A stretch of 42,951 nucleotides of DNA from assembly GCA_964540835.1 (NCBI GenBank), contig CAZIOA010000001.1:1-42951 (forward strand). The letters are read 5' to 3'. The notes beneath the pieces are model-generated. The model made no database searches. It saw only the letters and a program-made list of their open reading frames with translations, and was not told where the DNA came from. Of the stretch, positions 3,369 to 42,848 are shown piece by piece (positions within the stretch are counted from its first letter, which is position 1; each line of letters begins with the position of its first letter). This stretch comes from an uncultured Candidatus Saccharibacteria bacterium. Its GTDB lineage: Bacteria; Patescibacteriota; Saccharimonadia; Saccharimonadales; Saccharimonadaceae. The position numbers and the translations under genes are program-made.

Positions 3369-5885
3369 TTAGTTAAATAGGTCGAAACCGACAGCAGGCG
3401 CAGATGGAGCGCTCACGGCAGGTGCCGATGGTTTCGGCACTGGAATATCAAACTTCGGGAGGGACGGTGCAGGTAGTGAATGTGCCGGACTTGGGGTGAA
3501 TTGCTTGACTATAGAAGGGAGTTTGAACGATGGAAATGCTGGCGCGGGTGCTGGCGGTGGCGCGGGTGCTGGCGGCAGCTCTACGACTGGCGGCTTTGGC
3601 GGTGGAGCGACGCGCACAGGAGCAGGCGCTGGCGCGGGTGGTATATATACCGGCTTGGGCGTTTCTAAGCGAGGCGGCTTCGGAGTATCTGCAACGACAG
3701 GCTTTGGCTGCTGTACCGGTTTAGGTGACGGAACTTCATAGGCTGGCGCATCGATGACACGTGGCGGAGTTGGGTCCGGGATCGAATGCACGGGCGGAGG
3801 AGTGATGGCAATCCTATGCTCCACGATGTCGTTGAGCGACTGGCGAGCAGGCTCCGCAGGGGATTTAGGAGCATCCACAGGGGGAGGTGTTTCTACTCGT
3901 ACATGCGTCGGAACGCTATTTGGCTGATCGTCAAGGATATCACTCGCCAGCTGGCCTAGCGATGCCAGTGAGTGTTGAGTAGTTTGTTGTGCCGGGTGAG
4001 GAGCAGTTTGTCGCGAGGCATTGGCAGACGCTAACTCTTGAGCAGTCATGGCGGCATATTGGATGAACTGATCGGCAATCATATTGAGCTCACGACCGAA
4101 GTCCATGCCAGTGTACTGTTTGATCTGGTCTCTCGCCGTGTTGACAACGAAGTTCTTGCCGTCACCAAGTGCGTTTTCGATGACGTGATCGACTTCGCCC
4201 ATGAGTTTGTTGATTTCGCCCATAACAGTGCTAAATGCACGTTGAGCGGCATTAAACTTCGTCAATGGGTCGACATTTGGATCATTGATAATCGCAGCGG
4301 CTTCACCGACAGCGCCTGCCATATGGTTAAAGCCATTCCAGCTATCATCCATCAGCTGCTTCCACGGCTCGGGCATATTCGCTACCAATGTCTGGAAGAA
4401 ATTGCCGGTACCAAACTGCGCGTCAAGTGCCTTGGCTCCATAATGTAGCGCTTCACGAACATTTGCTTCCGGTGGCGGTGCGTTCGGATCGTCATTGCGC
4501 GGAAAGAGGGCACGGAGCGCTCGATTAGCACTCTCGGTGTCCATGATCCTGATACCAGCCCTTTCAAGCGCATCAACGACCCATTCGTTTTCGCGGTGAG
4601 CAACCCAGTGCTCGATGCCGTTCGCATCCTTAAACATCGTCCATGTCACGCTCGGATCATTGCGATCAGGCACCTCATGAGTGCCGTGAGGAATACCGGC
4701 GATGCTATACATGAGGGAAGTAAAGCTTTCGTTGCCACCACTGGCATATGGGTCACGATCATTGTAGAACATGCGTATCTTCGCGCCAGGAGGAAATGCT
4801 TGCTCACCACCCGTGTCGCGGAGACCGATTAACCCCGTGCCGAGTTTGCCCCAAGGACTCTTATCTATACCCTCGGCTCCTTGCGGCCCACCGATCATAT
4901 CGATCGTCAGGTCGCCTGGCCACTTGTTGCCATTTTGCCGATATACGTCCCAGGCAAAATCCTGCCCGGCATACGTACCGAATGAATAATAGATGAAGTG
5001 CGCGTGTTCGCCGCGCGACTGGGATTCCTGGTATCTTGCCATGGAGACTGCCGAGCCCTCTTCAATCGACGTTTCTGGTGATCTAAAGGGGTTACCGATA
5101 CCCATATCGGCAGACCAAGTCATACCTTCGTCACGATTACCAGGAGCGTAACCTTTGGCGTCAAACTCCGGCATAGGAGCCATGACCTGGGTATTGCCAC
5201 CCATACCGTAAGACCTGGTCGTCACCACTGCGTGCTCTATCGTGCCCACTGAAGACGCGTATGAGACGGCAGCATTTTTCGCTTCGCGATCTGGCTTGTC
5301 GGCATGTACGCCACCAAAGAGTACTACGCCAAGCGCCGTGCCACCAGCAAGCACGGTCGCCATGGCTTTTGGCGCTGCGTCAGACGCCAACTCCTGTAAA
5401 CGAGCGGCGGAGCGACTAAGCGCCTTTTTCGTCCTCGTCGACAGTGGATCTTCATCGTTGATTTTAGTCTTTTCGCGTCTCTCCATGCGCGCCTGCAGCA
5501 CAAGTGTTCGCTCCTCTATAGTGTGCTCGCGATGATTCTGCCATTTATTTTGTGCAAAAGTGTAGGCATTTTCGGCCGCCACCACGAGGTTGCCACGAAC
5601 CTGTACGGCTTTTTCTCGAACATGTGTCAGCGATTCAGCGACACCCGCCGCGACCGCGTGCCGATAGTCGACCGGCTCATCCGAGTTTTTATCGAAGTCA
5701 AATAAATTTTCTTCGACCTCCTCACCGCGAAGGTATTTATAGATAGATTCGAGAAACAAGTCACTACCGAGGTCATCCAGCCCCTCTTCCGAAGCGAGAT
5801 ATTGCTCCATTTCTCGATCATGAGTAGCCAAGGCATCTAACGATACTTCAACCTCTGTCTCAGTTGTTACTAAACCTCGACTCAT
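3369..5885 (-). CDS. Membrane-anchored paralog of the poly-proline-tailed hydrolase family (possibly degenerate nucleophile)
   Basis: 838-aa ORF. Charged N-terminal region of about 170 aa, one TM (AMATVLAGGTALGVVLFGGV), core with YYSFGT elbow-like motif and LDAQFGTGNFF block homologous to 1432..3216, and a Pro-rich tail of about 200 aa (PAPAPAPV, PPAPAPPPAPAPAF). Confidence 0.8.
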   Translation of the reverse strand: MSRGLVTTETEVEVSLDALATHDREMEQYLASEEGLDDLGSDLFLESIYKYLRGEEVEENLFDFDKNSDEPVDYRHAVAAGVAESLTHVREKAVQVRGNLVVAAENAYTFAQNKWQNHREHTIEERTLVLQARMERREKTKINDEDPLSTRTKKALSRSAARLQELASDAAPKAMATVLAGGTALGVVLFGGVHADKPDREAKNAAVSYASSVGTIEHAVVTTRSYGMGGNTQVMAPMPEFDAKGYAPGNRDEGMTWSADMGIGNPFRSPETSIEEGSAVSMARYQESQSRGEHAHFIYYSFGTYAGQDFAWDVYRQNGNKWPGDLTIDMIGGPQGAEGIDKSPWGKLGTGLIGLRDTGGEQAFPPGAKIRMFYNDRDPYASGGNESFTSLMYSIAGIPHGTHEVPDRNDPSVTWTMFKDANGIEHWVAHRENEWVVDALERAGIRIMDTESANRALRALFPRNDDPNAPPPEANVREALHYGAKALDAQFGTGNFFQTLVANMPEPWKQLMDDSWNGFNHMAGAVGEAAAIINDPNVDPLTKFNAAQRAFSTVMGEINKLMGEVDHVIENALGDGKNFVVNTARDQIKQYTGMDFGRELNMIADQFIQYAAMTAQELASANASRQTAPHPAQQTTQHSLASLGQLASDILDDQPNSVPTHVRVETPPPVDAPKSPAEPARQSLNDIVEHRIAITPPPVHSIPDPTPPRVIDAPAYEVPSPKPVQQPKPVVADTPKPPRLETPKPVYIPPAPAPAPVRVAPPPKPPVVELPPAPAPPPAPAPAFPSFKLPSIVKQFTPSPAHSLPAPSLPKFDIPVPKPSAPAVSAPSAPAVGFDLFN

Positions 5886-12693: not shown

Positions 12694-12719
12694 ATCACGG
12701 CACGACCTCTTTGTAGCTG

Positions 12720-12748
12720 TTGACAATTTACGAATACAGATGTATCAT
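12720..12748 (+). promoter_or_regulatory. Sigma70-type promoter driving the non-coding region 12.75-13.2 kb
   Basis: TTGACA (12720-12725), 17-nt spacer, TATCAT (12743-12748). No credible ORF follows. Confidence 0.6.
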
Positions 12749-12864
12749 ATTGTCAGTACAGAGTGTGTGGCGGATATCGTAGGAGTGTCTCGTAGGATAT
12801 CCGCTACACACTTCCTGTCGAACATACTAGTGATGTGCTAGTGATATGGGAGTTGTCGCACACC

Positions 12865-13009
12865 GCGGATGACAATGGCAACCTTGATTTATTCCTAAGC
12901 GGAGACGTGATAATCGCACCGGGAGGGGCTCATCCCGGGAATTGCATCATGACTCTTTACAGGAAAGCATCTTGCTTTCAGGGCGCGGGTTCGATTCCCG
13001 CCATCCGCT
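12865..13009 (+). ncRNA. tRNA-like / tmRNA-TLD-like RNA element, unclassified
   Basis: GCGGG-TTCGATT-CCCGC T-arm (12985-13001) is followed directly by CATCCGC, which is complementary to GCGGATG at 12865-12871. CCTTGA (12882-87) can pair with TCAGGG (12978-83) next to the T-arm. No D-arm or anticodon arm could be drawn, and 145 nt is too long for a tRNA. Confidence 0.4.
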
Positions 13010-13123
13010 CTTTTTGAGCAAGGTACGCTCTTGATTAGTGCACCAAGGACACCAATCAAGAGCATCTGGAGTCGCAGGCTAGAAGACCCTTGAGGTACTG
13101 CTTCGAGGAAGCCTCCTCCACAT

Positions 13124-13199
13124 GGGGGACGCGCTGAGCGCTTACGGGGTCAGCTCAGCGCGTCCCCCGCCCGTCGCATACATGTGACGGGCACTTTTT
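13124..13199 (+). terminator. Tandem hairpins ending in a Rho-independent terminator
   Basis: GGGGGACGCGCTGAGC/GCTCAGCGCGTCCCCC (16-bp stem, 13124-13168), then GCCCGTC-gcatacatgt-GACGGGC followed by ACTTTTTA (13169-13199). Confidence 0.6.
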
Positions 13200-13249
13200 A
13201 TATCTGCATAATATAGCTCTAGTATTTACGTATAATGAGAGAAGGCTTG

Positions 13250-23115: not shown

Positions 23116-23334
23116 TTAGCCTGCGACCGCGCGCGCGATAAACGCGACGACGATACCGATGATAGCCAGTGAGTCAGCAAAGACGATGGCGGTGATCATC
23201 AGCGTGCGGATTTCACCAAGTTTTTCTGGGTTTCGACCAAAAGCACCAAGCGCTCCGCCACCGATAACACCGATACCTACTGCCGCGCCTAGTGCTGGAA
23301 GGGCATAAGCTAAGACAAATGCTAACTGCTCCAC
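23116..23334 (-). CDS. atpE: Fo ATP synthase c subunit
   Basis: 72-aa two-helix hairpin with GxGxGxG-like packing motif (VGIGVIGGGALG), a polar loop (RNPEK) and a carboxylate in helix 2 (FADSLAI). GTG start 8 nt after AGGAG. Confidence 0.9.
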   Translation of the reverse strand: MEQLAFVLAYALPALGAAVGIGVIGGGALGAFGRNPEKLGEIRTLMITAIVFADSLAIIGIVVAFIARAVAG

Positions 23335-23383
23335 AATATTTTCTCCTTTAGTTTATTACTTTAAATTATATATTATATCGTTA

Positions 23384-24366: not shown

Positions 24367-24644
24367 TAATTACCGCTACTTTGCTCGTTTGCTTTCTTAT
24401 ATTGCTGCCTGACTAGCAGTGTCGTCACGACGATACCCACCGCCAGGCCGCCGACCGCGTACCATGGCTCAGTATCTGCCATGCTATCGATCCAGAGACC
24501 CAGGAGCGCCCCTCCGAGCGTAGGGACAAACATCCGCCACGTCGTATCCGCCGCTATCATGAACAATAAAACAACCGCTGATTTTTGTGGCGGTGTCTCC
24601 TTGTCGTCGCTTTTTTTCGCAGCGGCAGCGCTCATTACTAACAT
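24366..24644 (-). CDS. AtpZ/AtpI-like small membrane protein at the head of the atp operon
   Basis: 92 aa with two predicted TMs; overlaps the atpB start by 1 nt. TTGTCA-17-TACAGT promoter directly upstream on the minus strand. Confidence 0.6.
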   Translation of the reverse strand: MLVMSAAAAKKSDDKETPPQKSAVVLLFMIAADTTWRMFVPTLGGALLGLWIDSMADTEPWYAVGGLAVGIVVTTLLVRQQYKKANEQSSGN

Positions 24645-24710
24645 ACTGTAACAGAGAAAATTTTAGTTGACAAGAGGACTGTGCCGGTTTATTTGAGATA
24701 CAATTGAGCT

Positions 24711-29865: not shown

Positions 29866-29968
29866 CACACCCTGACCGCCACTGAGACTTGCCAATACAA
29901 CAACTAGACTATATTGCTATAATATGATATAGTTATACCAGTCCCATTCATATACGAAGGGAGGGACG

Positions 29969-30190
29969 ATGACAGAAGCTGGTATACATCTGATGGCAAG
30001 TCTATTTGGAGCATTCATCGGAACTCTTGCCATAATCATGCTCGTGATCATGGTGGTAACGGTCATGGTGAAAGTGGTAGCAAGAGTCGCCACGATGATG
30101 GGATTCGATCAGCTTGAGTTCAGGATGAACTACTGCGTGCCTGAGGGCATCAAGGAAGCGGAGAAGTACGCAAACTCTCCCGCATCCTGA
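29969..30190 (+). CDS. Small membrane protein (73 aa) between the AAA+ and Pup-ligase-family genes
   Basis: Strong RBS GAAGGGAGGG 4 nt upstream. Hydrophobic residues 8-45, polar C-terminal tail. Confidence 0.6.
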   Translation: MTEAGIHLMASLFGAFIGTLAIIMLVIMVVTVMVKVVARVATMMGFDQLEFRMNYCVPEGIKEAEKYANSPAS

Positions 30191-30208
30191 CCGCTACATC
30201 TACCAACG

Positions 30209-30295
30209 CCCCCGTCTGCACCTCGCACCAATTCACGACGTTGCACAATCCAGTTGGGATTGTCGTACTCGGAATTGGTGCAGGTAGCGCGGGGG
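30209..30295 (+). other. Extended RNA hairpin / possible terminator or attenuator
   Basis: GCACCAATTC (30225-34) pairs with GAATTGGTGC (30272-81). Inside it are ACGAC/GTCGT and CAATCC/GGATTG pairs, and outside it CCCCCG/CGGGGG, followed by TCTCTCTTTTTGG. CTGCACC (30216-22) can alternatively pair with GGTGCAG (30277-83). Confidence 0.5.
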
Positions 30296-30376
30296 TCTCT
30301 CTTTTTGGCTCTTTCTCTCAGTGGTAACAAATAGGCTATTTTATATTTGCGCCTATACGCGTATAATGTGCCCTCA

Positions 30377-34004: not shown

Positions 34005-34160
34005 TTTCACACTTGGATGCAGTACAAGGCGCTGGTGAAGCACGGAACGAGCCGTATAAACAATACGGTGAAGTGAGTACTGGAGCTAGTAACGCAGTAA
34101 TGTGCCAAGAGCACTGCGGCGCAGCGGTCTGCGACCGCTGGCAGGCAGTGCGGTGTGTAA
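34005..34160 (+). repeat. Palindromic repeat element, copy C (divergent promoter region)
   Basis: TTTCACAC...GTGTGTAA ends. Hairpins CCGTAT-aaaca-ATACGG and GCACTG..CAGCGGT-ctgcg-ACCGCTG..CAGTGC. Near-identical to copy B. Confidence 0.85.
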
Positions 34161-37406: not shown

Positions 37407-37904
37407 ATGGCAAACAAAAAATCTCCCAAGCGACCATCTGCCAACCAACGAAATATCGTCAATCGCCGAGCGCGGTTTGACTATGAGCTGGGCGACGAGC
37501 TCACCGTCGGCTTGAGCTTGACGGGACCCGAAGTCCGTGCCGCGCGCGACGGACACGTGCAGCTCAAGGGTTCGTACGTGCAGGTACTCAAGGGCGAGCT
37601 CTATCTCCAGGGCGCTAGCTTCAGCCTGAAGCTCAACGAACGCGGCCAGCCCGGCGCGCGCAGCATCGACACCAGTCCGCGCAAGCTACTGGCGCGCCGC
37701 AAACAAATCGATGAACTGATTGCGCGGAAACAAGATGGCATGACGATCGTGCCTACAAAACTCTTCACGACAGGACGCTATATCAAACTCGTCATCGCTA
37801 CCGGCAAGGGCAAAAAGCGCTATGACAAACGGCAAGTTTTGAAAAAACGTGCCGAAGAGCGAGATATCAATCGAGCTCTGAAATCCCATAGGGATTTGGC
37901 ATAG
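37407..37904 (+). CDS. smpB: SsrA-binding protein SmpB
   Basis: NRRARFDYEL, KGSY and a basic C-terminal tail KKRYDKRQVLKKRAEERD. TATAAT box 7 nt upstream of the ATG. Confidence 0.95.
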   Translation: MANKKSPKRPSANQRNIVNRRARFDYELGDELTVGLSLTGPEVRAARDGHVQLKGSYVQVLKGELYLQGASFSLKLNERGQPGARSIDTSPRKLLARRKQIDELIARKQDGMTIVPTKLFTTGRYIKLVIATGKGKKRYDKRQVLKKRAEERDINRALKSHRDLA

Positions 37905-38685: not shown

Positions 38686-39477
38686 ATGAAAGTTTACTCC
38701 TGGAATGTCAACGGCATCCGCGCTGTCGTAAAAAAGGGTGAGTTCGCCAAGTTTATCGAAGCACATCAGCCCGATATCCTGTGCCTCCAAGAGACAAAGG
38801 CCCGCCAAGAGCAAGTAGAGATCGACCTGCCGGACTACTATGAATATTGGAACAGCGCCACCAAAGGCGGCTATAGCGGCACGGCGATTTTCAGCCGCAC
38901 TCCAGCACTAAAAACCGTGCCGAATATTCCTGCGCACATCGCCGAGAAGTACGAGCTCGAGGACACTTATGGCGACACCAACGCCGAGGGCAGAGTGCTT
39001 GCCGCCGAGTACGAAGATTTCTGGGTAGTCAGCGTCTACACACCGAACAGCAAGGGCAAGCTGGAGCGGCTGGGGCTGCGCACGGAGCAGTGGGACAAAG
39101 CGTTTCTGGAATACATGAAAGAGCTCGAGAAGCAAAAACCCGTGATTTTCTGCGGCGACCTAAACGTCGCGCACAAGGAAATCGACCTGGCGCGACCAGA
39201 AGCCAATCGCTTCTCGCATGGCTTCACCGACGAGGAGCGCGCCGGGTTCGATGCCATCGTCGACGCCGGATTTATCGATACGTTCCGCTTATTCAACACC
39301 GAGGGCGAAAACTATACCTGGTGGACTGCCTGGGCCAACGCCCGCGAGCGCAATGTCGGCTGGCGCATCGACTACGTCGTTGTCAGCGAGTCTCTCGCCG
39401 ATCGCATCGCCTCCGCTGAAATTCATGCCGACCAAATGGGCTCAGACCATTGCCCGGTCAGTATTGAAATAAATTAG
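38686..39477 (+). CDS. xth: Exodeoxyribonuclease III (AP endonuclease, EEP family)
   Basis: MKVYSWNVNGIRA, LCLQETK, GDLNVAH, SDHCPV. Confidence 0.95.
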   Translation: MKVYSWNVNGIRAVVKKGEFAKFIEAHQPDILCLQETKARQEQVEIDLPDYYEYWNSATKGGYSGTAIFSRTPALKTVPNIPAHIAEKYELEDTYGDTNAEGRVLAAEYEDFWVVSVYTPNSKGKLERLGLRTEQWDKAFLEYMKELEKQKPVIFCGDLNVAHKEIDLARPEANRFSHGFTDEERAGFDAIVDAGFIDTFRLFNTEGENYTWWTAWANARERNVGWRIDYVVVSESLADRIASAEIHADQMGSDHCPVSIEIN

Positions 39478-39541
39478 ACTATCTGGCAAAATATACCCAT
39501 TCCATCTGTGAGTGGACGATCTTTTATGGAAAGGTGATGCG

Positions 39542-40204
39542 ATGCCGCTTTTGCGAAAAGCACCAAGTTTTGACCCGTACGACAAGCTTGCTCACAATTA
39601 CCTCCACGCTTACTACGTCACTGGGCCAAAACTCCCGAAGCGCCGTATCATGCGGCAAGTCCTACGTGAGGGGGTGGAGGATGGAAGAATCTGGTCCATC
39701 ATACGTGCCAGTCGTGTCCGACAGTTAGTCAAGGGTCACACCGTCGTGATTATCAACGCGCGGTCCGACATACGGATCAAATATCTCATCGAATCGTCAA
39801 CAGTCGAATCGATTCGCGTATTTGCCCGGTGGCTTTACGATCAGCTCGATATCGACGGGTCTTACTTCGATAGGGTACACCGTATCTTTGACAACTACAT
39901 CGAAGCTACAGACGGGGTATACCAGCTCTGCTTGGCAGACCGGTTTAAGCCGAGCGAACAGCTGCTGCAAAAGCTTTGCGATGCGGGCAAAGCGTGTTTC
40001 GAGCAACTGCGCCCGATTTTCGAGGAAGACCTCGCAAGGCAACGTGCGGCTGCCATAGAAAGAGCCATTGCAGAAAAAGCCAAGCAAGCAGTTCTGCAAG
40101 AGGGCAAAAAGCACATCACCAACAGCAAGGTCGCCATGGCCGTCGAGGATATCGATACATTCATCTACGGTCATCGGGGCCTACCCAACATCACGCCACC
40201 ATAA
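39542..40204 (+). CDS. Hypothetical protein (220 aa)
   Basis: ATG at 39542 follows AAAGGTGA (ORF-track GTG at 39512). No motif recognised. Confidence 0.5.
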   Translation: MPLLRKAPSFDPYDKLAHNYLHAYYVTGPKLPKRRIMRQVLREGVEDGRIWSIIRASRVRQLVKGHTVVIINARSDIRIKYLIESSTVESIRVFARWLYDQLDIDGSYFDRVHRIFDNYIEATDGVYQLCLADRFKPSEQLLQKLCDAGKACFEQLRPIFEEDLARQRAAAIERAIAEKAKQAVLQEGKKHITNSKVAMAVEDIDTFIYGHRGLPNITPP

Positions 40205-40216
40205 CTGAACAGAGCG

Positions 40217-40256
40217 AAAACGCCATTCAGTTCACTGGGTGGCGTTTTCATTTTGC
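40217..40256 (+). terminator. Rho-independent terminator (repeat copy 1)
   Basis: AAAACGCCA-ttcagttcactggg-TGGCGTTTTCATTTTG. The surrounding 55 nt or so recur at 41920-41972. Confidence 0.7.
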
Positions 40257-40341
40257 AACTTATTTCATCTGTAAAAGAAGACTTCTTTTTCTGTTGACTT
40301 TTACTGTTGAGGGTTTAACCTTTTTACTCTTTTAATCGGAG

Positions 40342-40370
40342 TTGACATATGTATGTAGTGCTGTTATAAT
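40342..40370 (+). promoter_or_regulatory. Perfect-consensus sigma70 promoter with no ORF behind it
   Basis: TTGACA (40342-47), 17-nt spacer, TATAAT (40365-70). Confidence 0.7.
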
Positions 40371-40376
40371 GATAAT

Positions 40377-40955
40377 GTCTGTGGTTGAGGTGACTCCTAC
40401 AGGTACGTTAAAAAGTCAATTCGAGAACAGTGAATAATAGTTCTACAGCGTAGCTTCACCGACATGTTAATCAACGTGTGAGTGAAGCTACGTTGTAAAG
40501 TCTGGGCGTAGTGAGTAGTCACTGTTTGATTCCAAAGAAGAACCAACAAACTACTCGACAGTCTCAGTCGAAGTCTTATGCTAAATCTTAGTCGCAGCCA
40601 AGTCTGAGTCGAAGATTAGTCCAAGGCTAAGTCTGGGGAGGCGTTTCTCATTCCCCCCTGCCTTCTGCACCGCTCTGCATCATCGCTTCCTGGCGTCTTT
40701 GCATCTCTGCAGCGAGCAACAATTGAATATGTCCGGTCTCCCACCCCCCGAGGAGACCGAGGGCCACCCTCAGGCCTACCGCTAGTAACGACAATCGGTG
40801 CAAACCGAAGAGGGTATCCGCAAACCCCGCGGTGTAATATGGGCAGCGTGGCCGACGGGCCCCTTCGGGCTATTCGTGCATGGCCTGTCGGCCACGCTGA
40901 TTTACTTAGTTCTCTTTGGCTTTTGGCCGCTCCTCGTGAGCGGCTTTTTGCTTTT
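40377..40955 (+). ncRNA. Candidate structured non-coding RNA of about 0.58 kb, unclassified
   Basis: Consensus promoter upstream. No ORF of 60 aa or more on either strand. Several long perfect stems (40449-40491; 40733/40751; 40844/40887). Canonical terminator GCCGCTC-ctcgt-GAGCGGC-TTTTTGCTTTT at 40926-40955. Confidence 0.5.
40559..40640 (+). repeat. AGTC-rich direct repeats (two units of about 41 nt) inside the candidate ncRNA
   Basis: AGTCTCAGTCGAAGTCTTA (40559) and AGTCTGAGTCGAAGATTAG (40600). Eight AGTC tetramers within about 75 nt. Confidence 0.7.
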
Positions 40956-40973
40956 CTGACATGTCGATATTGA

Positions 40974-41093
40974 CCTGAGTCTCAAAACCTCAACGAAACG
41001 AGGCTCAAGCGACTGTAACCCCAGAAATTACGTCGCTAATTCGTGAATTTCTGGGCGTGAAAGGGCCTCGTGAGTGAGGTTATGAGGCTCAGG
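40974..41093. repeat. 120-nt imperfect palindrome upstream of the 41143 gene promoter
   Basis: CCTGAGTCTCAAAACCTCAACGAAACGAGGC (40974-41004) vs GCCTCGTGAGTGAGGTTATGAGGCTCAGG (41065-41093). Inner perfect stem CCCAGAAATT/AATTTCTGGG. Confidence 0.65.
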
Positions 41094-41142
41094 GGATATT
41101 GTTCTTGACGTTTGAATGATTTTGTTATAAATATATTACTTA

Positions 41143-41889
41143 ATGAATATGAATCCAGGACTGCGCCACCGACTAGAGAAACTGAAAGACTCTCGTCGTC
41201 ATTATTCTCCAGTTAATGACGAGCTGCGAAACGCGACCATGACGGCGCTACTCGGTCCGCATTGGGTCGGAATACCACAGATTACAGATGACATCATCTC
41301 TACAGCAGCATCGGAAGACAACGCGAAAAAGCTTATCCCGCTCGTGGAAGAGGGTCATCCAGTAGGCGAAGAACAATGCGAAGTAGCGACAGCCGAAGCA
41401 ATCATCGATGGAGTGGAACGACGCAATTTTATCACTTGGTCTCAACACCCGAAAACTGGCCACCTGCGAGCGATCGACAGCGAAGGCCTCGGCACGCATA
41501 ACTTCATGCACTGCACGCCTGATGACGTACCTATGCTGCGTCGGGCAGGATTCAAAGCACTCACACTCGTCCACGTCGTCACCCCAGGAGAAGTCTGGTG
41601 TGACGAAATTGAAAAGCATGCCGACGATCCGGACTTCAGCGAAAAGATAGATGAGTCGCTCGATATGCTAGAGTATCAGCGCAATGAAAAATCGTTGCAA
41701 AAAATCGTCTATCTTCCCGCCGAAGACAGGCGTCAGAAAATCGCTGACACGCTGCTCGCGCTTCCACGGCGAAAGGCATCTGCTCACTATAGAGAAATTA
41801 TATACGACGATTCGTACTACCGCTGCGTGGAGGAGATGTTCCGTATCGCGCTGCAGTCATTTTCATACTCACCACAAACCACTGCATAG
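41143..41889 (+). CDS. Guanylate-kinase-like paralog with degenerate P-loop (hypothetical)
   Basis: Collinear with 42028..42831 (ERRNFITWSQHPKTGH vs ENRQLLNWSLNKTGH; MLRRAGFKALTLVHVVTPGEVW vs MMRKAGFATLKVVYAVTPAQIW), but it has GPHWVGIPQ in place of GATRAGKST. Confidence 0.6.
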   Translation: MNMNPGLRHRLEKLKDSRRHYSPVNDELRNATMTALLGPHWVGIPQITDDIISTAASEDNAKKLIPLVEEGHPVGEEQCEVATAEAIIDGVERRNFITWSQHPKTGHLRAIDSEGLGTHNFMHCTPDDVPMLRRAGFKALTLVHVVTPGEVWCDEIEKHADDPDFSEKIDESLDMLEYQRNEKSLQKIVYLPAEDRRQKIADTLLALPRRKASAHYREIIYDDSYYRCVEEMFRIALQSFSYSPQTTA

Positions 41890-41936
41890 CAAGAGCAGGC
41901 TCAGGCGCGCGACATCCAAAACTCAACAGAGCGAAG

Positions 41937-41972
41937 ACGCCATTCGACCAGGGTGGCGTATTCAATTTGCAA
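41937..41972 (+). terminator. Terminator-like hairpin (repeat copy 2)
   Basis: ACGCCA-ttcgaccaggg-TGGCGT followed by ATTCAATTTG. About 85% identical to 40203-40258. Confidence 0.55.
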
Positions 41973-42027
41973 TGCATCAAAACATAAGCATTTTTTATCA
42001 TGCTTCGGCTGCGCTACAATCATAAGC

Positions 42028-42831
42028 ATGAATTTTTCAAAGGAAATGGTCGCAAGACTTGAAGAGCTTGGCGTGTCGAATCGCACGATAGAAAAGCTTG
42101 ATCAGCTGGAAACCGAGCGCGAAAGTTACGGGTACGGGGGCGGTGAAATGCACGGCAAGCACTTCATGCCGTTTGTCGGCGCGACGCGCGCGGGCAAGTC
42201 GACGACTATCGAGCCCATGATTGAAATCGGGCGCGAAGAACTGGGTATCGACATCGCTGAAGTCGGCTCAACTGTCACACGGAAGCGCCGACCAAATGAC
42301 CCTGCCGACTACATAACCGCCGACGAAGGAATGACACACGATGGCATGGTTGAACTTATCGAAAACCGCCAGCTACTGAACTGGTCGCTAAACAAAACCG
42401 GGCACATCTATGGCGGCCAGCCGAGCAATTTCGCTGCGAAATACAACCTCCAGCCATTCCTGCCAGACAGCCTGAACATGATGCGAAAAGCCGGTTTCGC
42501 CACGCTCAAAGTCGTCTATGCCGTGACGCCGGCACAAATCTGGCGCAAACGTTTCCCCGAAAGGGCGTCGAACGCGGACACTAAGGGCAGACTGCACGAA
42601 GCGCTCGATTCACTGCAATTCGGCATGAGCCAGCCCGACATAGTCCGCTACGTCAACCTACCAGGCGACGAAGCGCTACAGAAAGCCTCGCGTACGCTGA
42701 TAAAAATCCTCCAAGCGGAGGAAGATTGGAAACTGACCCGTGAACTCGAAAGTGAGCTTCCGCCCGGCTTTTACCTGCACGGCCGCGGCATGCAACGAGT
42801 CGCGCGTACGCTTCTCCGCGAAGCCGAATAG
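42028..42831 (+). CDS. P-loop guanylate-kinase-like protein
   Basis: GATRAGKST Walker A; STVTRKRRPND resembles the guanylate-kinase S/TTRxxRxxE block. TACAAT box 7 nt upstream of the ATG at 42028 (ORF track 41953). Confidence 0.65.
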   Translation: MNFSKEMVARLEELGVSNRTIEKLDQLETERESYGYGGGEMHGKHFMPFVGATRAGKSTTIEPMIEIGREELGIDIAEVGSTVTRKRRPNDPADYITADEGMTHDGMVELIENRQLLNWSLNKTGHIYGGQPSNFAAKYNLQPFLPDSLNMMRKAGFATLKVVYAVTPAQIWRKRFPERASNADTKGRLHEALDSLQFGMSQPDIVRYVNLPGDEALQKASRTLIKILQAEEDWKLTRELESELPPGFYLHGRGMQRVARTLLREAE

Positions 42832-42848
42832 CGTATACTATAGGTGTT

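Follow-up and report, generated by a model that had tools for sequence, protein, structure and literature searches.

We report here on a 725-bp cassette at positions 40298-41022 of the window, by which we mean the whole stretch of 42,951 nucleotides (nt) from an uncultured Candidatus Saccharibacteria bacterium (contig CAZIOA010000001.1) that was analysed. The cassette contains a perfect promoter, a hairpin-rich segment of about 579 nt and an intrinsic terminator, and near-identical sister strains lack it. Our preferred interpretation, held tentatively and with somewhat less than even confidence, is that it is an accessory, strain-specific, self-contained noncoding transcription unit. We assign the unit to the + strand and regard it as noncoding because of the perfect promoter, the one-way terminator, the lack of any open reading frame (ORF) led by a Shine-Dalgarno (SD) sequence, the low codon scores and the better fold of the + strand. 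An earlier note on this DNA had taken the same region for a structured RNA of the kind of the conserved large ornate bacterial RNAs. What stands of that proposal is an independent, probably strongly transcribed, noncoding, hairpin-rich unit on the + strand; what falls is the kinship with, or resemblance to, the ornate RNAs. The cassette is an orphan and not a new conserved RNA class.

The promoter, an extended sigma-70 site of the form TTGACA-17-(TG)n-TATAAT at 40342-40370 on the + strand, scores 12/12 and is the sole perfect sigma-70 site in the window, where two sites with at most one mismatch to the consensus were found and 0.08 would be expected. Transcription would start from it near 40377. 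Other genes of the window have TATAAT-like -10 boxes 6-9 nt 5′ of a leaderless ATG, and because many of them are leaderless with such a box, a promoter of this type appears native to the host genome. The promoter, and it alone, suggests that the cassette is highly expressed. The transcript would end at a strong, one-directional intrinsic terminator on the + strand at 40925-40955, which reads GGCCGCUC-CUCGU-GAGCGGCU followed by UUUUGCUUUU (in DNA letters, GGCCGCTC-CTCGT-GAGCGGCT and then TTTTGCTTTT; the stem-loop takes up 40925-40945 and TTTTTGCTTTT follows it). The predicted + strand transcript between these two signals, 40377-40955, has a minimum free energy of -231 kcal/mol (z -7.1) and no Rfam match. 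No antisense promoter above 8/12 was found in the cassette. More generally, leaderless mRNAs seem to be widespread in this genome, as is implied by TATAAT-like boxes without an SD at, for example, 9355, 31820, 32792 (minus strand), 37407 and 38686; other genes of the window have strong GGAGG-type SDs.

The region between the neighbouring genes has little coding potential. As the earlier note had stated, the 938 bp at 40205-41142 hold no ORF of 60 amino acids (aa) or more; the largest are of 53, 51 and 50 aa, and the sole longer ORF that reaches into the region, 39976-40335, is a spurious out-of-frame ORF of the upstream gene. No cassette ORF of more than 12 aa has an SD 4-12 nt before its start, and codon-usage scores of the cassette lie in the lowest 0.3-14% of real in-frame windows. 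An ATG at 40375, 4 nt after the -10 box and so nearer to it than in the leaderless genes of the window, opens 20 codons (40375-40434). Frame 1 across the unit contains 8 stops in 195 codons by hand count, which by a rough estimate is about the random expectation. To find any homologous DNA on which ORFs had been called spuriously, a concatenate of six-frame peptides from the cassette was compared with 5.8 billion predicted proteins, without a match; an exact look-up of 10 ORFs made with the same aim also found nothing. We rejected a pseudogene as an explanation: a weak GC periodicity is all that speaks for it, protein similarity was not found and the stop density is random.

The presence/absence polymorphism of the cassette is observed directly in Logan contigs. 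Ten short contigs (runs SRR118438xx) carry the orphan gene that lies upstream of the cassette and are 100% identical to the window over up to 1430 nt, as far as 40297. Logan contigs with this same gene pass straight from 40297 to the equivalent of window position 41023 (in L008, with 93% identity over 73 nt), and another contig, L090, starts exactly at the equivalent of 41023 and has a 77%-identical version of the 248-aa gene that follows the cassette. The comparison of contigs L001-L008 and L090 with the window defines the 725-bp indel, and what the sister strains lack is the unit from promoter through RNA to terminator, plus a further 67 bases. The haplotypes are also sharply divergent on the right-hand side of the cassette. 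Because near-identical sister strains exist without 40298-41022, the cassette is, to judge from these contigs, dispensable and not a housekeeping RNA.

The two junctions of the indel differ in nature. Across the left junction, at 40285-40310 on the + strand, lies a tandem 13-nt duplication (CTTTTTCTGTTGA and then CTTTTACTGTTGA, with the junction between the two copies), which was the only repeat that Tandem Repeats Finder reported in the region. Across the right junction lies a 120-nt imperfect palindrome (40974-41093, z -6.7), and the junction itself falls inside its core, a hairpin element of about 60 nt (CCCAGAAATT...AATTTCTGGG, 41006-41064) that is intact in the window. An 83% copy of this element is found in L010, the closest of the relatives described below, between two convergent genes (4517-4575), with compensatory changes in the stem (CCTTG...CAAGG). 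Since the element interrupted at the right junction is whole both in the window and in L010, deletion in the sister strains is probably the origin of the polymorphism, in preference to insertion in the window. The flanks of the cassette contain no terminal inverted repeat, no target-site duplication and no recombinase, and a self-blast revealed no second copy in the window. The hairpin element occurs at unrelated intergenic positions in two Saccharibacteria genomes and looks like a small repeated palindromic or terminator element.

The most distinctive module of the cassette is an AGUCNN array at 40560-40635 on the + strand. It consists of 13 hexamer units, eight of them perfect, three with one mismatch and two with two, and is also predicted to fold on itself via G-U pairs. 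The RNA has 11 copies of AGTC where 1.8 would be expected, and a single GACT. The autocorrelation of the array peaks at lag 6 (0.49) and again at lags 11 and 12 (0.39 and 0.46); at lags 2-5 and 7-10 it stays within 0.14-0.24. Eight AGTC fall within 80 nt, and in 5000 shuffles no stretch of that length had more than four. For comparison with relatives, SmpB was used as a query against species-representative genomes, which gave 80 loci (1.43 Mb in total), each spanning only ±10 kb around smpB; in this Saccharibacteria DNA, on both strands, no 120-nt stretch besides the array has six or more AGTC. The array is non-random and unique. Downstream of it, at 40640-40720 on the + strand, is a C/U-rich, A-poor tract (C 32, T 24, G 16 and A 9 of 81; 69% pyrimidine).

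The remainder of the predicted transcript is rich in hairpins, all on the + strand. The first is a long imperfect hairpin at 40444-40497 of 23 bp with a 2x2 internal loop (25-nt arms, 84% complementarity), in which the pair probability reaches 0.96-0.99. It is followed by a predicted hairpin at 40512-40557, GAGUAGUC/(G)ACUACUC with inner stems, by a GC-rich 8-bp hairpin at 40734-40759 (CGGUCUCC/GGAGACCG, C-rich loop, probability 0.99), and by a short hairpin at 40795-40808 (CGGU-GCAA-ACCG) with a GNRA-type loop. At 40844-40899 a near-perfect stem of 17-18 bp (18-nt arms, 94% complementarity, probability 0.98) surrounds GCCC-CUUC-GGGC and leads into a U-rich stretch. A 22-bp helix that would close the 5′ and 3′ parts of the molecule, 40411-40435 with 40900-40924, is also predicted. 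The + strand folds better than the - strand (z-scores of -7.1 and -3.8). The anatomy given in the earlier note was found to be accurate in almost every feature, from the perfect promoter, which is 12/12 with a TG extension, and the canonical terminator to the AGTC-repeat block, which resolves into the 13 AGUCNN units, and the C/T-rich tract with its 69% C+T; the hairpins are present where it had placed them, those at 40444-40497 and 40844-40899 being longer than it had given.

Our searches for relatives of the cassette were negative throughout. At gathering score, Rfam 15 gave 0 matches in the whole window; at E≤10 with permissive filters, 40150-41200 gave only terminator-driven matches or chance matches to microRNA and small nucleolar RNA families, the best of them being JA04 with 32.9 bits against a gathering score of 81. 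The Infernal scan of Rfam that the earlier note had proposed, with the ROOL, GOLLD, OLE, raiA and HEARO families included, thus found no family even at E≤10. In the 80 Saccharibacteria loci, blastn and nhmmer found only a 16-nt chance match. There was no blastn match in phage and plasmid collections and no match for three exact cassette patterns in IMG/VR; of two exact patterns sought in JGI metagenomes, one had no match and the other had four chance 18-20-mers with unrelated flanks. A literature search on Saccharibacteria structured RNAs, AGUC repeats and the SRA run found nothing useful. Since other intergenic stretches of the window show 70-80% nucleotide conservation in the same 80 loci, the method is able to detect conservation at this distance. 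Within the available collections, every search found no conservation beyond this genome, an outcome that the earlier note had itself held to count against its proposal. Among the conserved stretches (70-79%) are 23134-23371, 34010-34155 and 24523-24657, one of which is non-syntenic in L010 (19415-19558); these stretches may be small genes or conserved noncoding RNAs, and Rfam at gathering score had no match in the window or in L010, the conserved intergenic stretches included.

The host chromosome is established as that of a member of Candidatus Saccharibacteria (TM7): nearly all of the 80 loci from the SmpB scan belong to this group, and SmpB of the closest, L010, is 84% identical. Upstream of the cassette lie smpB (37407-37904) and a gene of the exonuclease III family, xth (38686-39477). 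The order smpB, xth, a variable segment and a conserved 'next' gene (from window position 42834 onward) is kept in 70 of the 80 loci, and in these 70 relatives the variable segment is between 3 and 3483 nt long. The cassette is located in this hypervariable island (39478-42833 in the window), together with an orphan 230-aa gene upstream and a 248-aa and a 292-aa gene downstream. The 230-aa protein matches only itself among 5.8 billion proteins, and the 248-aa protein has a single relative, 77% identical. The 292-aa protein is a paralog of the 248-aa protein (24% identity) and has a Walker A motif; its match to guanylate kinase (PHROG, E=4e-4) is the best of the weak NCBIfam and PHROGs results for the flanking proteins, and a PDB sequence search with the 292-aa protein found no match. 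Pfam and PADLOC had no match for any of the three island proteins, and NCBIfam had far sub-threshold ones only. The guanylate-kinase-like P-loop family is present in 14 of the 80 loci and the RNA cassette in none of those 14. No analogous cassette was seen in the same island of the 70 relatives, where the largest ORF-free stretch is 278 nt.

The island shows some further features of its own. Orphan genes and divergent guanylate-kinase-like P-loop genes are frequent between xth and the 'next' gene (compare L010, L011, L012 and L090), and near-identical strains differ in it by whole genes, as L090 does in having no 292-aa gene. The same terminator-like hairpin (GAAAACGCCATTCAG...CTGGGTGGCGTTTTC) stands after successive island genes, at 40205-40258 and at 41916-41972; it is 90% conserved in L010 (12544-12590), where it is read as the N-terminus of an ORF.

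Several observations weigh against a functional noncoding RNA. The background z-score of 579-nt windows in this genome is -1.9 ± 2.3, so that the cassette folds only about 2 standard deviations below the genome's own background; its z-score in the background run (-6.3) was equalled or undercut by 2 of 34 background windows, one of which overlaps it. In stability the predicted closing helix does not exceed the best duplex that shuffled segments give. No homolog was found, and there is hence no covariation and no evidence of selection on structure. The 3′ half of frame 1 has a weak gene-like GC periodicity in two independent segments (about 0.6/0.48/0.66 by codon position). Elsewhere, AGTC arrays with a hexamer period are for the most part microsatellites or repeats that encode dipeptides: all that a looser hexamer-array pattern retrieved from IMG/VR was of one or the other kind, (QS)n in viral contigs among them, and for this reason the array is possibly a relic. 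The loss of the cassette in sister strains also means that it is not needed there.

An alternate explanation, which we consider unlikely but take seriously, is that the cassette is relic DNA, either a decayed leaderless gene or imported DNA, in which promoter and terminator were kept by chance and any transcript would be functionless. Consistent with this, the ATG at 40375 is in frame 1 with two open stretches of the 3′ half, in a frame that ends with TGA in the terminator; the GC content by codon position is ordered in both 3′ segments as in real genes; and the hexamer period has the look of the coding (Q/K-S)n repeats known elsewhere. The location in a hypervariable island, the lack of conservation and the dispensability in sister strains would also be expected of a relic. 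However, the near-random stops of frame 1 are not those of a recent pseudogene, no frame has protein similarity, the codon scores are those of the poorest real in-frame windows, and a 12/12 promoter, a perfect terminator and near-perfect hairpins of 17-23 bp are unlikely to have outlasted neutral decay.

The hydrophobic ORF in the 3′ part of the unit leads to a different possibility, namely that the transcript is a type I toxin-like or small-protein mRNA. This ORF (40798-40959 on the + strand, 53 aa), which enters our analysis only as a rival explanation, has a GTG start inside the 40795-40808 hairpin, where the start codon would be sequestered, and its stop in the terminator T-run. The N-terminus is charged and the 32 C-terminal residues are hydrophobic, the Kyte-Doolittle mean over 19 residues reaching 2.0. 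The ORF has an intermediate codon score, which stands at the 10th percentile of real genes and the 97th of out-of-frame windows, and a strain-variable locus is typical of such genes. The long folded RNA, the small hydrophobic ORF near the 3′ end, the buried start codon and the strain-variable intergenic site are all shared with type I toxin mRNAs of the hok/sok kind. In contrast to these, the cassette has no SD, no antisense RNA promoter and no homologs, and the ORF overlaps the terminator. An ORF of the small hydrophobic toxin kind is there, and translation signals together with an antisense or divergent antitoxin RNA gene are not (the best antisense promoter reaches 8/12). The ORF also lacks an ATG, whereas a real small gene in the window has a strong SD, and most of its coding sequence is taken up by hairpin arms and the terminator T-run, from which its hydrophobic residues come. 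A HMMER search against 1.84 billion representative proteins found no family and, as in the set of 5.8 billion, no homolog, bar one chance match to a repetitive protein of 1665 aa. This explanation would moreover leave the AGUC array and the 420 nt upstream region unexplained, and we regard it as improbable.

Equally doubtful in our view is an element that acts at the level of DNA, such as a mobile or recombination remnant whose hairpins and repeats serve as recombination sites or as REP-like palindromes. Points in favour are that the 725-bp indel is discrete, that a 13-nt tandem duplication marks its left junction and a 120-nt palindrome spans the right one, and that the core hairpin is a repeated element. 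In addition, one Logan contig has its first base precisely at the junction, suggestive of a branch point in the assembly graph. Transposase, integrase and intron signatures are nonetheless absent, as are terminal inverted repeats and target-site duplications, and no second copy exists in the window, the 80 loci or the collections searched; the strand asymmetry of AGTC and its 6-nt spacing suit a single-stranded nucleic acid and not duplex DNA. The same absences, together with the lack of an intron model match, led us to reject an insertion sequence, a miniature inverted-repeat transposable element and a group I or group II intron. The proposal of the earlier note, a conserved class of large ornate RNAs that would be either new or a divergent ROOL, GOLLD, OLE, raiA or HEARO, is close to refuted. 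The cassette resembles these RNAs in being a stand-alone promoter-to-terminator unit of accessory DNA, about 0.6 kb long, with many stable hairpins in its roughly 580 nt. The known families, however, have a conserved, covarying structure across many genomes. The cassette matches no model, whether at gathering score or at E≤10; none of the searches gave a homolog, the 70 relatives have no counterpart at the same locus, and sister strains have no copy. To nominate a large ornate RNA, it is therefore not enough to have a perfect promoter, a terminator and strong predicted folding, since this candidate does not pass the conservation test and in folding score is not far outside the genome background.

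The accessory noncoding unit that we prefer is also distinct from the housekeeping RNAs. The earlier note had found in it no signature motifs of transfer-messenger RNA (tmRNA), RNase P RNA, signal recognition particle (SRP) RNA or 6S RNA, and Rfam and, for tmRNA, ARAGORN agree that it is none of these. A tmRNA has a tRNA-like domain (T-arm GGUUCGAnUCC, acceptor stem with G-U, 3′ CCA context) and a tag reading frame. It deserved attention, with smpB 2.5 kb upstream of the cassette, and was rejected on the lack of a T-arm, of an ARAGORN call and of a match to the Rfam tmRNA models. With default settings ARAGORN found no tmRNA or tRNA in the window, and with an 80% threshold on the target it returned one spurious antisense tRNA only. 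The motif UAGUC-GCA (40589-40596) resembles the resume-codon context of E. coli tmRNA; the frame after it stays open for 63 codons before a double stop, well beyond the length of a normal tmRNA tag, and there is no T-arm. RNase P RNA has conserved regions CR-I to CR-V, which form P4; AAAGUCUGGGC (40497-40507) matches 10 of 11 bases of the CR-I core, but the RNase P models give no score at E≤10. RNase P RNA was rejected because neither the type A nor the type B model matches at that threshold and an essential RNA could not be absent from sister strains. SRP RNA and 6S RNA have no Rfam match in the cassette, which is neither.

Among regulatory RNAs, the array can be compared with the TRAP-binding (G/U)AG x11 arrays of the Bacillus trp leader and the GGA arrays of CsrB/RsmZ, with which it shares about a dozen motifs of 3-4 nt in one orientation at a spacing of 5-6 nt. 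A TRAP-type RNA has nine to eleven (G/U)AG triplets, 2-3 nt apart, and a ring-shaped, mtrB-like binding protein. Over the roughly 76 nt of the array, NAG with spacers of 2-3 nt can be read in 11 of the 13 units, but GAG or UAG in only three, the others having AAG or CAG. The array differs from both classes in its AGUC motif, in this predominance of AAG and CAG, and in that it is also predicted to pair with itself. Because it is 290 nt from the terminator, it is not part of an attenuator. A type III toxin-antitoxin RNA of the ToxI kind is made up of repeats of about 34-40 nt in tandem and lies directly 5′ of the gene for an endoribonuclease of the ToxN/AbiQ type; the cassette has only the 13-nt duplication, the genes downstream are guanylate-kinase-like P-loop paralogs and PADLOC reported nothing, so this candidate was rejected. 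Strain-specific orphan small RNA or noncoding RNA genes of genomic islands are similar in organisation, having their own promoter and terminator, no ORF, a distribution confined to one lineage and no essential role, although the cassette RNA, at about 580 nt, would be several times longer than is typical.

The sequence anatomy of the cassette and its polymorphism among strains are what has been shown. If the cassette is indeed such a unit, the transcript of about 580 nt would fold into a series of stable hairpins and, we infer, act in trans as a stable and abundant molecule. The AGUCNN array could then offer repeated sites to an oligomeric RNA-binding protein, and the RNA could function as a sponge or a scaffold, by analogy with the TRAP-binding arrays and CsrB-type RNAs; alternatively, the array may be a plain wobble-rich hairpin. 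The most plausible mechanism is that the array would be a platform on which an oligomeric RNA-binding protein finds many sites, although the probability of this is itself low. No protein neighbouring the cassette within the 43-kb window has an RNA-binding assignment. It is a long shot, but conceivable, that the cassette represents a large noncoding RNA that is new and restricted to its lineage, in an ultrasmall, episymbiotic bacterium of the candidate phyla radiation (CPR): an RNA whose array wraps or titrates an oligomeric protein or drives self-assembly of the RNA, and which is gained and lost as a cassette in an island that possibly takes part in host or phage interaction. Should the transcript be real and functional, it would be among the very few noncoding RNAs described in Saccharibacteria or CPR bacteria, with an unusual hexamer-repeat module and with an RNA gene as presence/absence cargo between near-identical strains.

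Other parts of the window also have long gaps between ORFs. The earlier note had called the window otherwise tightly packed, which is not borne out: further gaps of 416-781 nt separate long ORFs, at least one of which (29866-30346) is filled mostly by a small SD-led gene. This gene, at 29969-30190, would encode about 70 aa by hand translation, with a hydrophobic stretch, and has the strong SD GGAGGGA; 3′ of it is a stem (GCACCAATTC...GAATTGGTGC) with a T-run, and the z-score of the gap is near -7 on the minus strand. Another long gap free of ORFs lies at 12694-13234. Its promoter, TTGACA-17-TATCAT (12720-12748), is close to consensus, its hairpin at 12758-12818 is very stable (z -6.3), and a terminator is present at 13169-13192. 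Within the gap there is also a T-arm of textbook form (GCGGGTTCGATTCCCGC, 12985-13001), after which come CATCCGCTC and a T-run, and 12898-13009 folds like a tRNA-like molecule with a long arm. For this gap Rfam gave nothing and ARAGORN no call at default settings, and at the 80% threshold ARAGORN returned an odd tRNA or a permuted tmRNA. The gap may therefore hold an unusual tRNA-like or tmRNA-like gene.

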